A stretch of DNA of 32,000 nucleotides. Source: Chitinophaga jiangningensis (GTDB taxonomy: Bacteria > Bacteroidota > Bacteroidia > Chitinophagales > Chitinophagaceae). The translations under genes and the position numbers were made by a program. How positions within the stretch are numbered: position 1 is the stretch's first letter; every line of letters starts with the position of its first letter. The notes under the pieces were generated by a model, which was not told the origin of the DNA, searched no databases, and saw only the letters and a program-made list of their open reading frames with translations. Positions 1 to 23,144 of this stretch are shown one piece after another. The stretch spans positions 633,836 through 665,835 of the forward strand of contig NZ_FRBL01000001.1 of the NCBI RefSeq assembly GCF_900142605.1, read 5' to 3'.

Positions 1-117
1 AGCATCTACGGCGTTACTCACCAGCTCACGGATAAAGATTTCGTGATCGGAATACAGGAATTTTTTGATGATCGGAAAGATATTTTCCGTTTGTACACGT
101 ATAGCGCCTTTTTGCAT
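1..117 (-). CDS. htpG: Molecular chaperone HtpG (Hsp90 family), first 39 codons only; gene runs off the left edge
   Basis: Absent from the ORF track because it is short. The reverse complement of 1-117 starts with ATG (117-115) and reads [39 protein letters not shown]. This is the conserved HtpG N-terminus, ending in the E-L-x-S-N-A-x-D-A ATP-binding motif. Confidence 0.8.
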
Positions 118-204
118 GGGAAAAGTAAATTTTAGATTTCGGGGAGATGAGAGTCAAAGGTTGTGCCAGCGCCGTGGTGGCTGACAAGATGACGCGAGGC
201 GGGA

Positions 205-311
205 TTTTTTCACGCAAAGCTTTGCTGGCGGCGTAAGGGGCAAAGGATTGGTGCGATCTTTTTTTCTCGCAGAGCAGCATAAGAGGCATAAGCAGCAAAG
301 GATTGTGTTTT
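205..311 (+). repeat. Tandem pair of a ~50-bp dispersed repeat (T-run, CnCGCAnAG, GCATAAG/CAGC sub-repeats, AAGGATTnTG): degenerate copy 205-253, good copy 259-311
   Basis: 259-311 (tttttttctcgcagagcagcataagaggcataagcagcaaaggattgtgtttt) aligns by eye with 20903-20955 (tttttttcacgcaaagcagcataagcagctaagcagctaaggattatgtttt). It also aligns with the reverse complement of 21476-21515. Confidence 0.75.
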
Positions 312-317
312 ATTTTG

Positions 318-536
318 CTGGCAATATGCCGGTAATCTGCTGGCAACCTGCTGATAATTTGCTGGAAATCTGCTGGTATCCGCGGGGAATACGCTGGCTA
401 TCTACCGGCAACCTGCTGGTACCCTGCTGGCAATACACTGGCAATACGCTGGCAATACGCTGGCAATACGCTGGCAATACGCTGGCAATACGCTGGCAAT
501 ACGCTGGCAATACGCTGGCAATACGCTGGCGCCGCG
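318..536. repeat. 11-bp tandem array: about 10 degenerate units (318-426), one variant unit (427-437), 8 perfect CTGGCAATACG units (438-525), then a truncated unit
   Basis: Counted base by base. Perfect units start at 438, 449, 460, 471, 482, 493, 504 and 515. Upstream units (ctggcaatatg, ccggtaatctg, ctggcaacctg, ctgataatttg, ctggaaatctg and so on) keep the 11-nt phase and diverge progressively. Confidence 0.95.
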
Positions 537-578
537 CGCAGCGCGGCACTCCCCAATCGCCACCGAAGGTGGCGATTG
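531..578. other. Two GC-rich stem-loops abutting the array: gccgcgc-gca-gcgcggc (531-547) and caatcgccacc-gaa-ggtggcgattg (554-578)
   Basis: Perfect 7-bp and 11-bp inverted repeats with 3-nt loops, read directly from the sequence. No T-run follows. Confidence 0.5.
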
Positions 579-706
579 CCTCCCAACTGGTTCAGCACCA
601 GAACCCTAAATAATATATAACAAGCTATAAATCAATTAATAACCCAAAAAAGAAAGAATATTCCATAATAAAACCCGGTTATCTCCTAAAATTGGGAATA
701 GTTCTT

Positions 707-7177: not shown

Positions 7178-8380
7178 TTACTTAAACACCCCATCATCAT
7201 AAGCAGCGGCATACTCCTTAAAATCATCCTGCACCTGCTCCGCATAAGAAGCAGCATATTCATACAGCCTGTCTTTCCAGTTATCCACACTGCCGCCAAA
7301 ATCAATCAGTTCATCCGCAATTGCAGAGCCCTGGCGGCCTCCCGAGCGAAGGCAATCCCAGCCAAGGATCTGCCCCATCGTCGTCAAAATCTCTTCCAGC
7401 TGCGGAATATTACCGGCAAACAATTCAAAGTTCAATTTATCGGAGCTGGGTTGCAGTTGCTTTAATACGAATTGTTCCCCCGCCACATTAACAGCATGCA
7501 ACAGCGCAGGATAGGCTGCCTGCACACGTTTCTGTACCTCCGTGATACGATGCGCCTCGTCTGTCCATACAGGCTGGGGGAAGTGATGGTATTTTAAAAT
7601 GCAGGAAGGGTTAGCTCTTTTCAGGTCCAGCAGGTGATATTCACCCGGTGCTTTATCGTAGGTCACCAACAGTACATAGCGTTCAATACCCAAACTACCG
7701 GTACCGGCTATACGATACGCAGCATCCACTACGTTGTAACCTTTTAAAGCAGGACGTTTGGCTGCCCAGCTGTTCACCGCCGCCTTTACCAGGTCCCGCT
7801 CTTCCTTCGGTGTTTTGATGGTTTTCAGGTCATCGATGAGCAGTCGGGGTTTATCCTCTTTTATATACATTCTTTTTGCGAGGAATGGCTTTAACTTCCG
7901 GTTACGCACCGTATCCAGAAACAGGCGGATAGTTCCGGTAGCGGCCTGTTTTTCCAGGGAACGGATATATCCGGCCGTAAGCGTATCAGCATACGATTTA
8001 ATAAAAATACCGGCGAGCTTTTTCGCCTCTTTGGCATTCACATCCAGCACATCGGAGGTAAGGAAGATACTGCATAGCAATCGTGCAGGGTCCAGCAGGC
8101 AGGGCGCCAGCACTGCTTCGTCAAAATCGTTGATATCGAAATAAGGGATATGGTTATCGGCTTTGTAGCTACCGAAATTTTCGAGGTGGAGATCTCCGCA
8201 GATCCAGCTACGTGGGGATTTCAGTAGTTCGTTCCCTGCAGGCAAATCTTCGTAAAACAAATGGCAGGAGCCTCTGAAAAAGCGGAGTGGATTGCGGCGC
8301 ATGGCTGCATACTTCATGGAAAGCAAGGCAGGAATGCGGCCTTCGTTGAAATGGATAATCCTGTCAGAAATCTGCTGCAT
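7178..8380 (-). CDS. DUF2252 domain-containing protein (uncharacterised)
   Basis: RRNPLRFFRGSCHLFYEDL...WICGDLHLENFGSY...YFDINDFDEAVLAPCLLDPARL matches my memory of the DUF2252 N-terminal signature. ATG at 8380. Confidence 0.8.
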   Translation of the reverse strand: MQQISDRIIHFNEGRIPALLSMKYAAMRRNPLRFFRGSCHLFYEDLPAGNELLKSPRSWICGDLHLENFGSYKADNHIPYFDINDFDEAVLAPCLLDPARLLCSIFLTSDVLDVNAKEAKKLAGIFIKSYADTLTAGYIRSLEKQAATGTIRLFLDTVRNRKLKPFLAKRMYIKEDKPRLLIDDLKTIKTPKEERDLVKAAVNSWAAKRPALKGYNVVDAAYRIAGTGSLGIERYVLLVTYDKAPGEYHLLDLKRANPSCILKYHHFPQPVWTDEAHRITEVQKRVQAAYPALLHAVNVAGEQFVLKQLQPSSDKLNFELFAGNIPQLEEILTTMGQILGWDCLRSGGRQGSAIADELIDFGGSVDNWKDRLYEYAASYAEQVQDDFKEYAAAYDDGVFK

Positions 8381-8382
8381 AT

Positions 8383-8424
8383 GGTATCTTTATATAGCGC
8401 TTACCTGCGTTATATAAAGATACC
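8383..8424. other. Perfect 14-bp AT-rich stem with a 14-nt loop, 2 nt upstream of the DUF2252 start and 13 nt downstream of the D-TA gene stop
   Basis: ggtatctttatata (8383-8396) pairs with tatataaagatacc (8411-8424). Confidence 0.6.
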
Positions 8425-8437
8425 AAATTCCGGCCGC

Positions 8438-12276: not shown

Positions 12277-12348
12277 AAAAAAAGGAAGACTGGTGCCTTC
12301 GGCACCAGTCTTCCTTTTTAGTATCATCGCAAAACCGGGGGTTTTGCG
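12277..12348 (-). terminator. nuo operon terminator region: hairpin cgcaaaacc/ggttttgcg (12328-12348), then a strong hairpin aaggaagactggtgcc/ggcaccagtcttcctt with flanking A/T runs (12277-12321)
   Basis: Read directly from the sequence. On the minus strand the second hairpin is followed by a T-run. Confidence 0.85.
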
Positions 12349-19711: not shown

Positions 19712-20809
19712 TTACGATTGAGATTTATTGAAATCGTCAGAGTGTGCCGGTCCGTCGATCTTCGACAGGTCGATGGTAGGCCTGTTTACCTCACTCTGCG
19801 TATGGATATCGAACAGCAGTTTTGGCTGGCGGCCATCCAGTACTTCTACAAGCGGGTCTTTCGGTTTCACGGTATTTACATAGTGACCCTGAGAGATAAC
19901 GCTGTGGCGGTCAATCTTACGAGGTCCTTCTATGGTCCAATCTTTTACGTCTTTCTTTTCGAAGCGGCAGGTATCACAGATCCAGTTTTCCACTTCACCG
20001 TATTGGTCTTTGCGGGCGGTTACGCGGAATACTTCATCACCACGCATCCAGAGTGCCACTTTACCGCAGCATTTAGGATTATCGCAATTGCGGTGAGCAT
20101 CCACAGGTTTGAGGAACCATACACGGTTTTTGAAACGTGCCGTTTTATCGGTGAGCGCACCTACCGGACAAACATCGATTACGTTACCGATGAAATCATT
20201 GTCCAGGTTATTCTGGATATAAGTGCTGATCTGGGAGTGATCACCTCTGTCGAGTACACCGTGCTCACGTGATGCTGTCAGCTGATCCGCTGTGAATACG
20301 CAACGGTAGCAGAGGATACAGCGGGTCATGTGCAGCTGGATATGATCACCGAGATCTATTTTATCAAATGTTCTGCGTTTAAATTCGTAGCGGGTACCTT
20401 CAGCGCCGTGTTCGTAGCTGAGGTCCTGCAGGTCGCACTCACCAGCCTGGTCACACACCGGGCAATCCAGCGGGTGGTTGATGAGCAGGAATTCCACGAT
20501 GCCTTTGCGGGCTTCCAGTACTTCCGGAGAGGTGATATTGGCTACTTCCATACCATCCATTACAGTAGTACGGCAGCTGGCTACCAGTTTAGGCATAGGG
20601 CGCGGATCCGCTTCTGAACCTTTCGTCACTTTTACCAGGCAGGTACGGCATTTACCACCACTACCCTGCAGTTTGGAATAGTAACACATAGCCGGTGGCA
20701 CTACATCTCCTCCAATACCACGTGCTGCATTCAAAATGGTAGTACCTGGTTCGACCTCCACGGAGATGTTATCGATCTTAACCTTGAATAATTTTTTTTC
20801 CTCCGCCAT
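19712..20809 (-). CDS. nuoG: NADH-quinone oxidoreductase subunit G, short form (Fe-S N-terminal part only, 365 aa)
   Basis: [2Fe-2S] cysteines (MCYY...KCRTC...ASC), HPLDCPVCDQAGEC (N5-type) and CILCYRC...CPVGA (N4-type), then a cysteine-containing remnant (CDNPKCC...CDTC). There is no long molybdopterin-oxidoreductase-like domain. Confidence 0.9.
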   Translation of the reverse strand: MAEEKKLFKVKIDNISVEVEPGTTILNAARGIGGDVVPPAMCYYSKLQGSGGKCRTCLVKVTKGSEADPRPMPKLVASCRTTVMDGMEVANITSPEVLEARKGIVEFLLINHPLDCPVCDQAGECDLQDLSYEHGAEGTRYEFKRRTFDKIDLGDHIQLHMTRCILCYRCVFTADQLTASREHGVLDRGDHSQISTYIQNNLDNDFIGNVIDVCPVGALTDKTARFKNRVWFLKPVDAHRNCDNPKCCGKVALWMRGDEVFRVTARKDQYGEVENWICDTCRFEKKDVKDWTIEGPRKIDRHSVISQGHYVNTVKPKDPLVEVLDGRQPKLLFDIHTQSEVNRPTIDLSKIDGPAHSDDFNKSQS

Positions 20810-20850
20810 TGTTTTGATTTTTATACTCGCAGTGCGAGCGCTTCCTTTTA

Positions 20851-20955
20851 TTTTTTTCTCGCAGATAGCTTATTGGGCCAGGAGCGAGGATTGTGTTTTG
20901 TCTTTTTTTCACGCAAAGCAGCATAAGCAGCTAAGCAGCTAAGGATTATGTTTTG
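20851..20955 (+). repeat. Tandem pair of the ~50-bp repeat: degenerate copy 20851-20899 and good copy 20903-20955 (left arm of the cassette)
   Basis: tttttttctcgcagatagcttattgggccaggagcgaggattgtgttttg followed by tttttttcacgcaaagcagcataagcagctaagcagctaaggattatgttttg. This is the same architecture as 205-311. Confidence 0.75.
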
Positions 20956-20972
20956 TTGATTAAGTTCCGATT

Positions 20973-21042: not shown

Positions 21043-21420
21043 TTACAAATTGCACACGACACGGTGTATCCCATCTTTTATCAGCTTAACATTGAAATTC
21101 ACTAATAATCCGAGTTTTATCTCAGATAATTTGAGATATGTATAGAGCTGTTTGAAATGAACCTCTTCCAATGCTTTTAAGCTTTTAATTTCAACAATAA
21201 CTTTATTGTTAATTATAATATCCGCTTTGAAAGCATTTTCAATAATGATTTCATCATGTTCAATATCGACTCCCACTTCTGTCCTGACAAAGAAACCATT
21301 CCTTTCGAGTTCATATACAAGTAATCGATGGTAAACCGATTCAAACAAACCAGGTCCATACCGCTGGTGCAAATGAAAACAAAGATCTACAATCTCTTTC
21401 GAGATTTCATTTTCAGTCAT
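21043..21420 (-). CDS. GxxExxY protein (PDDEXK_3 / PD-(D/E)XK nuclease-fold family, function unknown)
   Basis: 125 aa. GLFESVY matches the GxxExxY motif, and ADIIINNKVIVEIKS gives D...ExK. ATG at 21420, TAA at 21043-21045. The gene is markedly AT-rich relative to its neighbours. Confidence 0.85.
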   Translation of the reverse strand: MTENEISKEIVDLCFHLHQRYGPGLFESVYHRLLVYELERNGFFVRTEVGVDIEHDEIIIENAFKADIIINNKVIVEIKSLKALEEVHFKQLYTYLKLSEIKLGLLVNFNVKLIKDGIHRVVCNL

Positions 21421-21475
21421 GGATGAATAATTAAAAGGTTAACAAATTCTGAAAACAAACAAATTTCTTATCAAA

Positions 21476-21516
21476 CTCCTTTGCTGCTTATGCTGCTTTG
21501 CGAGCAAAAAAGATCT
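21476..21516 (-). repeat. Inverted copy of the ~50-bp repeat (right arm of the cassette)
   Basis: The reverse complement reads gatcttttttgctcgcaaagcagcataagcagcaaaggag. The core 21483-21502 is the exact reverse complement of 20912-20931. Confidence 0.85.
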
Positions 21517-21526
21517 ACTCCATTTC

Positions 21527-22885
21527 CTAAACTGTAGCCGCAACCGGCAACGGATCAGCATAATGCGCTAAACCGAAGTTGCGGCGCTGCGCTTCTTCCG
21601 GATTTTTCACATGCCATTCAAACTCGTCACGGAAGTGGCGGATAGCTGCTGCCACCGGCCATGCTGCCGCATCTCCCAGCGGGCAGATGGTGTTACCTTC
21701 GATCTTGCGCTGGATGTCCCAGAGCAGGTCGATATCACTCATCTTACCTTTACCTGTTTCTATATTTTTCAGCACTTTTTCCATCCAGCCGGTACCTTCA
21801 CGGCAAGGGCTACACTGACCACAGCTTTCGTGGTGATAGAAGCGTGCGAAAGTGAGCGTGTTTTTAACGATACACTGGTCTTCGTCCATCACGATGAAAC
21901 CGCCGGAACCCAACATGGAGCCGGTTGCGAAACCGCCATCAGCCAGGCTTTCATAGGTCATCATCCTGGTTTCACCCTTCGCTGTTTTCAGCAGCAGGTT
22001 GGCAGGCAGCACCGGTACGGAAGAACCACCCGGGATACATGCTTTCAGACGTTTACCGTTTCTGATACCACCGCAGTATTCATCAGAGAAGATGAATTCT
22101 TCCACAGAGATATTCATTTCGATTTCGTATACCCCTGGTTTGTTGATATTACCGCAGGCAGAAATCAGTTTGGTACCGGTAGATTTACCTGTACCGAGTT
22201 TAATATATTCATCGCCGCCGTACTTAATGATTGGTACTACTGCTGCGAGGGTTTCAACGTTGTTTACCACTGTAGGGCACTGCCAGAGGCCTTTTACAGC
22301 CGGGAACGGAGGTTTGATACGTGGGTTACCGCGTTTACCTTCCAGGGATTCGATGAGCGCAGTTTCTTCACCGCAGATGTAAGCACCGGCACCGCGTTGT
22401 ACATATATTTCCAGGTCAAAACCGGTACCCTGAATGTTTTTACCCAGCCAGCCATTATTTTTCGCTTCGGCGATGGCTTGTTCCAGGATATCAGGAATCC
22501 AGGCGTATTCGCCGCGGATATAGATGTAGCAAGCGTTTGCTCCGAGGGTGAAGCTGGAGATCAGCAGCCCTTCGATCAGCAGGTGTGGGATAAATTCCAT
22601 GAGGTAGCGGTCTTTAAAAGTACCGGGCTCAGATTCATCCGCATTACAAACGAGGTAACGGGGAACACCTTCAGGCTTGGCAATGAAGCTCCATTTCATA
22701 CCGGTAGGGAAGCCGGCACCACCACGACCTCTGAGGCCACTCTTTTTCACTTCTTCCAGAACAGCTTCAGGCCCCATGCTTTTCAGCGCTTTTTCAGCTG
22801 CAGCATAACCGCCGTTTCTCCGGTAAGTATCGTAATACCGGATGCCTTCAATATGTGCGTTTTCTAAAAGTAATTTGCGTCCCAT
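21527..22885 (-). CDS. nuoF: NADH-quinone oxidoreductase subunit F (FMN and NADH binding, N3 cluster)
   Basis: GLRGRGGAGFPTGMKWSF (FMN/NADH site) and ESCGQCSPCREG ([4Fe-4S] N3). Confidence 0.96.
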   Translation of the reverse strand: MGRKLLLENAHIEGIRYYDTYRRNGGYAAAEKALKSMGPEAVLEEVKKSGLRGRGGAGFPTGMKWSFIAKPEGVPRYLVCNADESEPGTFKDRYLMEFIPHLLIEGLLISSFTLGANACYIYIRGEYAWIPDILEQAIAEAKNNGWLGKNIQGTGFDLEIYVQRGAGAYICGEETALIESLEGKRGNPRIKPPFPAVKGLWQCPTVVNNVETLAAVVPIIKYGGDEYIKLGTGKSTGTKLISACGNINKPGVYEIEMNISVEEFIFSDEYCGGIRNGKRLKACIPGGSSVPVLPANLLLKTAKGETRMMTYESLADGGFATGSMLGSGGFIVMDEDQCIVKNTLTFARFYHHESCGQCSPCREGTGWMEKVLKNIETGKGKMSDIDLLWDIQRKIEGNTICPLGDAAAWPVAAAIRHFRDEFEWHVKNPEEAQRRNFGLAHYADPLPVAATV

Positions 22886-22952: not shown

Positions 22953-23144
22953 TCAGGCTCTGCTGGCTCCCCGCTTTGCGATGCGGTTGCCAAGGCGGTA
23001 CAACAGGTATCCGGCGCTAACGCCGAAAACAAAGGAAACAAAAGCATTCTCAATTCTCCACAAAGCTGTGAATAACCCCATCAGCAATATGGTTTCGATA
23101 ATGAAGAACTTATTTTGCAGTAGTAAACCTGTCAATAACCTCAT
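22953..23144 (-). CDS. Candidate 63-aa two-helix membrane micro-protein in the nuoE-nuoF gap
   Basis: Same strand as the operon. The ATG lies 21 nt after the nuoE stop, and the stop lies 67 nt before the nuoF ATG. Two hydrophobic segments (LLTGLLLQNKFFIIETILLMGLFTALW and AFVSFVFGVSAGYLLY) precede a basic tail. No family recognised. Confidence 0.4.
   Translation of the reverse strand: MRLLTGLLLQNKFFIIETILLMGLFTALWRIENAFVSFVFGVSAGYLLYRLGNRIAKRGASRA

Follow-up and report, generated by a model that had tools for sequence, protein, structure and literature searches.

An intergenic repeat of Chitinophaga jiangningensis and its possible partnership with a GxxExxY nuclease

The window analysed here, a 32,000-nt stretch of Chitinophaga jiangningensis contig NZ_FRBL01000001.1, carries copies of one repeat at two loci. 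Locus A (205-311) sits in the 640-nt spacer between the divergent genes htpG (start 117, minus strand) and rpsF (start 758). The second locus lies in the nuo operon on the minus strand, where a gene for a GxxExxY / PDDEXK_3 nuclease of 125 aa (21043..21420, minus strand) is placed between nuoF (21527-22885) and nuoG (19712-20809). The repeat unit is about 55 nt long and runs from a T-run through the head C(A/T)CGCA(A/G)AG and two to six sub-repeats of 8-9 nt (CAGCAAAG or CAGCATAAG) to the tail GATTRTGTTTTG, which took the form GATTRTGTTTTGTTG when the window copies were aligned with 60 others. Copy A1 (205..253, plus strand) is degenerate and has kept the T-run, the head TTTTTTCACGCAAAG and the GGCAAAGGATTG tail. 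Copy A2 (255..315, plus strand) is a good solo copy composed of GATC, T-run, CTCGCAGAG, the sub-repeats CAGCATAAG/AGGCATAAG/CAGCAAAG and the tail GATTGTGTTTTATTTTG. In the nuo operon, the degenerate B1 (20851..20899, plus strand) is followed by B2 (20903..20960, plus strand), the arm that separates the stop codon of GxxExxY from nuoG; copy C, the right arm (21455..21515, minus strand), lies after the stop codon of nuoF and before the start codon of GxxExxY and is inverted with respect to B2.

When scored with an nhmmer profile built from 63 copies of related genomes, A2 (259-315; 50.3 bits, E 6.2e-15), B2 (58.4 bits, E 1.8e-17) and C (21455-21511, minus strand; 48.9 bits, E 1.7e-14) were matched along the unit, and A1 and B1 were matched at the head alone (205-220, E 0.044, and 20851-20865, E 0.75, respectively). 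The degenerate copies are therefore weak by themselves and credible only in context. They are backed by their tandem position and a start-to-start spacing of 52-55 nt, and A1 is further backed by its head, which is the head of the lone copy in the sister strain Chitinophaga sp. sic0106. The head pattern TTTTTTCWCGCARAG, with at most 2 mismatches, occurred 5 times in the window (205, 260, 20852 and 20904 on the plus strand; 21496-21510 on the minus strand), compared with a shuffle mean of 0.43, and 0/100 shuffles reached 5. The tail pattern GCAGCWAAGGATTRTGTTTT was found 2 times (292-311 and 20935-20954) when 0.01 was expected. B2 forms an inverted repeat of 38 nt with the right arm (21476-21513; 89% complementary), and further inverted repeats pair 255-288 with 21482-21515 (34 nt, 88%) and 281-307 with 21472-21498 (27 nt, 85%). 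The last of these covers the 17-mer gcataagcagcaaagga that the earlier note had reported in A2 as identical to the reverse complement of the right arm. The five copies that it listed, with a common architecture, likewise agree with the sequence and coordinates, and the head and tail counts are above those of shuffles. GATC and a T-run, which it had placed before A2, B2 and the right arm, precede A2 and the right arm but not B2; they also precede a copy at a third locus (L065 of sic0106). In the stretch 205-311, an intergenic repeat is present once in good form (A2) and once in decayed form (A1). As had been noted, an inverted partner and a real ORF are lacking there; the ORFs 26-346 (minus strand) and 248-613 (plus strand), which run through the repeats, match no family and are translation artefacts.

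An 11-bp tandem array (GCTGGCAATAC, about 19.6 copies, 316..530, plus strand) grows from the TTGCTGG tail of A2. The last ~100 nt of this array are near-perfect, and a Logan assembly contig breaks off within it. The TTGCTGG motif also follows copies in C. dinghuensis. When the orthologous htpG-rpsF spacers were compared, the repeat was present only in the window, in sic0106 and, as a G-rich variant in the same place, in L070; the spacers of Hz27, L066 and L072 held no repeat. The window and sic0106, between which dS was 0.04 in the GxxExxY gene and protein identity 99%, differ at locus A by two clean indels in register, one of 73 nt and one of ~197 nt. The 73-nt indel spans, in register, the stretch between the head of A1 and the body of A2, and sic0106 therefore carries one fused copy. 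The ~197-nt indel contains 11-mers, with ~20 units in the window versus 2 in sic0106. These indels and the presence pattern mark locus A as a hypervariable half element specific to this lineage; its partner arm may have been lost or may never have been present. Judged from this comparison, the copy number at locus A appears to shift by unequal recombination or slippage on the strain time-scale. The earlier note had offered a transposition footprint as one explanation of this locus; recombination and slippage seem instead to have reshaped a half element there. At 531-579 lie a GC-rich hairpin GCCGCGCGCAGCGCGGC and a second one, CAATCGCCACC-GAAG-GTGGCGATTG; in sic0106 the stem of the second is unchanged and its loop differs (TTCGT), apparently flipped. 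Upstream of htpG, at ~159-175 on the minus strand, a sigma-54-like -24/-12 motif (TGGCAC-N5-TTGA) sits within a block that is conserved in every one of the orthologous htpG-rpsF spacers (L066-L075).

The nuclease gene in the nuo operon matched the profiles TIGR04256 (122.9 bits versus a cut-off of 35, E 8e-36) and PF13366 (119.7 bits versus a cut-off of 22, E 1e-34). It was located between nuoF and nuoG in 6/6 relatives (sic0106, Hz27, Cy-1792, C. dinghuensis, C. oryzae and Lacibacter luteus) and was flanked by inverted arms in the window and in all six. The gene was intact, with a dN/dS of 0.06-0.09 where dS was measurable. On these sequence comparisons, it is an old, vertically inherited resident under purifying selection and no recent insertion; recent mobility of a cargo element at nuoF/nuoG, as proposed earlier, does not agree with its synteny and purifying selection across the Chitinophagaceae. 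Between the window and Hz27/Cy-1792, the arms were nearly invariant over ~30 nt and dS in the gene was saturated (>2). B1 was present in sic0106 and absent from Hz27 and Cy-1792. The arms of C. oryzae and Lacibacter kept the head and an 8-nt periodicity (NNGCNAAG), and their bodies differed. A search of 654 kb of repeat-rich DNA from the clade (~10% of these genomes) gave no other GxxExxY paralogue, and the exact sequence of the GxxExxY protein of the window had no database record. Between B1 and the nuoG start, a mini-palindrome (CTCGCAGTGCGAG, 20826..20838) consists of two repeat heads set head-to-head without a body; Hz27 and Cy-1792 have an unrelated GC hairpin at this site.

D67, E77 and K79, which make up the D...E.K catalytic core, are conserved in the GxxExxY protein. 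The AF2 model (pLDDT 96.8) had a Cas4/lambda-exonuclease-like core, and its best structural neighbours were Cas4 SSO0001 (4ic1, E 4e-4, TM 0.5) and LHK-Exo or lambda exonuclease. Profile matches of the protein to Cas4 were weak, and a PDB sequence search with it returned no relative. Given the conserved D67/E77/K79, the low dN/dS and the confidently predicted fold, the nuclease looks functional. Its predicted fold is like that of the Cas4 and lambda-exonuclease PD-(D/E)XK nucleases, but the protein is a minimal 125-aa core; unlike Cas4, it is without an Fe-S cluster module or CRISPR context.

The repeat is not confined to the two loci of the window. When one genome per species was scanned for the exact 20-mer CGCARAGCAGCATAAGMRGC, ~40 Chitinophagaceae loci were found, with ~22 in C. 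dinghuensis, ~12 in Hz27 and 2 in sic0106. With only 2 exact matches in sic0106, the window lineage seems copy-poor. The 20-mer was also present in vietnamensis, silvatica, MAGs, Pinibacter soli and others. Single matches in unrelated taxa numbered ~17 when ~9 were expected by chance according to our own estimate, and these look like chance. One 408-nt contig labelled Herbaspirillum sp. ASV7 (L053, JAELUH010000242.1) consists of three Chitinophaga repeat copies and is probably contamination or a misassigned contig. The earlier note had suggested a profile search of related genomes; further copies were indeed found, regular in orientation and pairing. The retrieved loci contained 135 copies, and almost all of these are intergenic, with 128 outside long ORFs. 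The profile and 20-mer searches together upheld a family that is dispersed within a Chitinophaga clade and has gene-less and gene-bearing forms.

All two-copy groups (22/22) were arranged '+-', that is, convergent, with the T-run and head pointing outward and the tail inward; in mixed-orientation groups, + copies stood ahead of - copies in all but one. When folded, doublets reached z values of -12 to -16 and formed a near-perfect 35-45-bp hairpin around a variable core. By contrast, single arms folded no better than shuffles (z -0.8 to +1.3 for A1, A2, B2 and C; -2.0 for B1). The cores between paired arms were 20-330 nt long and mutually unrelated, often with a terminator-like hairpin. The arms were also multiplied in tandem, with nine copies at a period of 58 in L013 and similar cases in L047, L027 and L028; arms multiply and collapse in tandem via recombination or slippage, and it is in this respect that locus A of the window differs from that of sic0106. 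Intergenic regions holding copies were 10 convergent, 18 tandem and 2 divergent, and 3' ends were favoured, the median distance of the outer arm being 29 nt to a stop codon and 86 nt to a start codon. By inspection for target-site duplications, one possible 9-nt direct repeat was seen at L041 and none at L009, L011, L052 or L064. The similarity of arm tails was 0.52 within pairs versus 0.51 between loci, and co-evolution of paired arms in Chitinophaga was dropped as an explanation because these two values did not differ appreciably.

Several familiar elements were rejected for the repeat. Scans for sigma-70 promoters and terminators at both loci gave nothing above shuffles. Bacteroidetes -7/-33 motifs were sought by eye in the unit, and a promoter was rejected because no proper match was seen. 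An intrinsic terminator was rejected as well: the T-run is 5' of the arm, an A-run comes after the doublet, and the terminator scan found none at locus A. A phage origin was rejected because the only two matches in a 20-mer scan of viral contigs were due to chance and lay inside coding sequence. A rut site, an Hfq ARN motif, an integron attC site and a CRISPR array were ruled out on anatomy.

The link with the GxxExxY gene, which had been proposed from the nuo locus, is no local coincidence and holds across the whole protein family, which comprises 12,478 clusters at 50% identity and was sampled here as 80 diverse loci from metagenomes, retrieved with 13 sequences. When the 200-nt flanks of the genes were aligned in inverted orientation, 47/74 loci scored at least 30, compared with 2/74 after shuffling. 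The arms were arrays like TTTCACGCAAAGACGCAAAGATAACCGCAAAGAACGCAAAG, or variants on CGCAGAG, CACAGAG or CGCAAGG. Arrays, defined by regex as three or more CGCAAAG-type units, had a density of 5.35 per kb up to 150 nt away from the gene versus 0.117 per kb elsewhere, a 46-fold enrichment, and none lay inside the GxxExxY genes of the 80 loci. An array was present within 150 nt of the gene at 65/80 loci; by the same regex, 15/80 had none. The layout was '+ gene -' at 25 loci, '- gene +' at 8 and '- gene -' at 8, and in a further layout the gene stood between two complete hairpin doublets (L103, L146). Gene-less arrays on the same contig shared the arm variant of the gene in L119 (CACCGCAGAG), L142 (CACCACAGAG) and L122 (AAACGCAAAG), and also in L100. 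The cargo-bearing form described earlier is therefore a general hallmark of the GxxExxY gene family, and the Chitinophaga 55-mer is the local version of inverted arrays that bracket GxxExxY genes in many bacteria. At three loci (L115, L119, L121) the GxxExxY frame was disrupted (best ORF 30-47 aa) and the bracketing inverted arrays were intact; arms can therefore outlive the gene. At L122 (2416-3262), '+' and '-' arrays of the same variant as in the neighbouring GxxExxY arms bracket an ORF that, on our reading of the sequence, we take to be urease-beta-like; arrays can therefore occupy consecutive intergenic spacers around a host gene.

In three reports (PMC3337134, PMC3733652, bioRxiv 10.1101/2022.05.22.493013), REPIN/RAYT systems (Pseudomonas, Enterobacteria) are described as short extragenic repeats, mostly at gene 3' ends, in which the inverted hairpin doublet is the functional unit, with dozens of copies per genome, a genome-specific variant and an enzyme gene flanked by inverted repeat copies. 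The Chitinophaga repeats are similarly extragenic (128/135) and biased to 3' ends, with multi-copy inverted doublets predominating (22/22), and their enzyme gene is likewise vertically inherited, apparently single-copy and flanked by inverted repeats of a genome-specific variant. However, the RAYT is an IS200/IS605-like Y1 HUH transposase, and the enzyme flanked here is a 125-aa PD-(D/E)XK nuclease. The repeats differ as well. A REP is an imperfect palindrome of 20-40 nt, whereas the single Chitinophaga arm is no palindrome and only doublets fold; the arm carries no GTAG or CGTC tag and has instead a T-run and C(A/T)CGCA(A/G)AG as its head; and arms are arrays of iterated 7-9-nt units, variable in number. 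Unlike that of a REPIN, the spacer between the arms is long and unrelated from copy to copy.

With the association seen at the sampled loci and the mechanism deduced by analogy, we favour, at slightly less than even chance, a REPIN/RAYT-like partnership in which the GxxExxY nuclease would have its cognate DNA sites in the arrays. It would bind the iterated units, as duplex or extruded hairpin, and then cut nearby; repair or recombination templated by other copies would spread, homogenise and resize the arms, whether or not the gene goes along. Solo arms and gene-less doublets would not be autonomous and would rely on the vertically inherited, apparently single-copy nuclease gene, in the way that REPINs rely on RAYTs. 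PD-(D/E)XK enzymes perform no strand transfer, so that, as we conjecture, spread must use host repair. Several findings count against the arrays as nuclease sites: the cores of gene-less doublets are unrelated, no consistent target-site duplication was seen with them, the window lineage seems copy-poor, and the gene has stayed fixed at one site for very long; moreover, the layouts are mixed, 15/80 loci are array-free and arm tails are no more alike within pairs. Among the options of the earlier note, a REP-like family acted on by the nuclease nevertheless fits the evidence best; the REP-like family stands, and the action of the nuclease on it is what we infer. A broader and more doubtful proposal is that GxxExxY proteins, as small PD-(D/E)XK nucleases, may be repeat-associated enzymes of a second class, analogous to RAYTs and independent of them. 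They would recognise iterated CGCAAAG-type units in inverted arrays and maintain or propagate genome-specific populations of intergenic hairpin repeats, and in some lineages, e.g., at the nuo copy of the Chitinophagaceae, they would have been domesticated and passed on vertically over long periods.

It is possible, although we consider it unlikely, that the element works at the RNA level, the transcript stem of the inverted arms being processed (e.g., by RNase III) or insulating or silencing the ORF, with the nuclease as a passenger and the gene-less doublets as 3'-UTR stabilisers or attenuators. A ~40-bp arm stem around the ORF appeared in both the minimum-free-energy and the centroid folds of the nuo transcript (z -7.3), the GxxExxY gene reads in the same direction as nuo, copies lie preferentially at the 3' ends of genes, often starting a few nt from the stop codon, and the arms are complementary in '+ gene -' and '- gene +' layouts alike. 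The predicted arrangement resembles the ORF-carrying intervening sequences of rRNA, in which a long stem of flanking inverted repeats, inside an essential transcript, carries a small ORF in its loop; unlike in these, the host here is an mRNA operon or intergenic DNA, and the arm motif, not pairing alone, is conserved. Pairing alone does not account for a CGCAAAG-type unit kept across distant lineages. Further, arm mismatches had no G-U-tolerant bias (transitions: 36 compatible versus 54 incompatible; transversions: 113). Doublets are also found in places that may be untranscribed, namely between separate terminators and between divergent promoters. The T-run precedes the stem and the elements are not intrinsic terminators, and the Rfam covariance-model scan of the window gave 0 matches at gathering score.

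Also improbable in our view is that the hairpin repeats belong to the host, spread and resize on their own through slippage and recombination, and served as landing pads for selfish, homing-type GxxExxY genes, the association then being one of target choice. Some insertion sequences target REP hairpins. In Chitinophaga, copies without the gene are far more numerous than those with it and have differing cores, copy number alters by in-register indels, and some genes stand between two complete hairpin units (L103, L146), all of which would suit such insertion. However, very similar heptamer arrays would need to have pre-existed in many unrelated hosts, and arrays are rare away from the gene flanks (0.117 per kb). 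The nuo gene, with its long vertical residence and purifying selection, likewise has no pattern of invasion and decay.

We rate as very unlikely that the repeats are ordinary MITEs moved by an unrelated transposase, with their flanking of the nuo GxxExxY gene a coincidence. Inverted terminal arms, small size and intergenic location would fit, and the elements resemble Correia/CREE, ERIC and RUP in being small, non-coding and intergenic with hairpin-forming terminal inverted repeats. Unlike in these, one arm is often multiplied in tandem, the interior is not conserved, there is no uniform length and no consistent target-site duplication, and no transposase-bearing parent IS was found in ~650 kb of retrieved loci, where the sole gene-bearing form carries GxxExxY. 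The GxxExxY association is also family-wide. The same unrelated cores (20-330 nt) and the lack of a consistent target-site duplication speak against the suggestion in the earlier note that these are MITE-like copies of a master element. A chance resemblance among low-complexity sequences, to which the weakness of A1 and B1 alone (E 0.044 and 0.75) might point, is refuted by the E-values of the strong copies (1e-14 to 1e-17), the clean shuffle controls and the dozens of near-identical copies in related genomes.

The main weight of this analysis lies on the family-wide link between repeat and nuclease, and less on locus A. GxxExxY/PDDEXK_3 is among the larger protein families without known function; the searchable literature gave nothing on its function, mentions of the name not addressing it, and no paper with these array sequences or a description of a repeat-nuclease link. 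The arrays offer a testable substrate, and a family-wide DNA partner leads to a concrete biochemical hypothesis, namely that the nuclease binds and cleaves its own flanking arrays. Such a link would account for a class of intergenic repeats at which short-read assemblies break, spurious calls of lysine/alanine/glutamine-rich ORFs, and rapid strain-level length variation in promoter-proximal spacers such as htpG-rpsF. If the analogy with RAYTs is true, lasting partnerships between a repeat and an enzyme would have arisen more than once in evolution, and on catalytic folds that are unrelated.

Further features were observed elsewhere in the window. A hydrophobic ORF of 63 aa lies between nuoE and nuoF (22953-23144, minus strand), and small genes were also called at this position in sic0106, C. 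oryzae and Lacibacter (63, 62 and 68 aa, respectively), with no Pfam match; the ORF may encode a conserved small membrane protein of the nuo operon. Two minus-strand genes are separated by a 22-nt inverted repeat (8379-8428) that is 91% complementary. At the downstream end of the operon, a perfect 19-nt inverted repeat (AAAAAGGAAGACTGGTGCC / GGCACCAGTCTTCCTTTTT, 12279-12319) looks like a bidirectional terminator.
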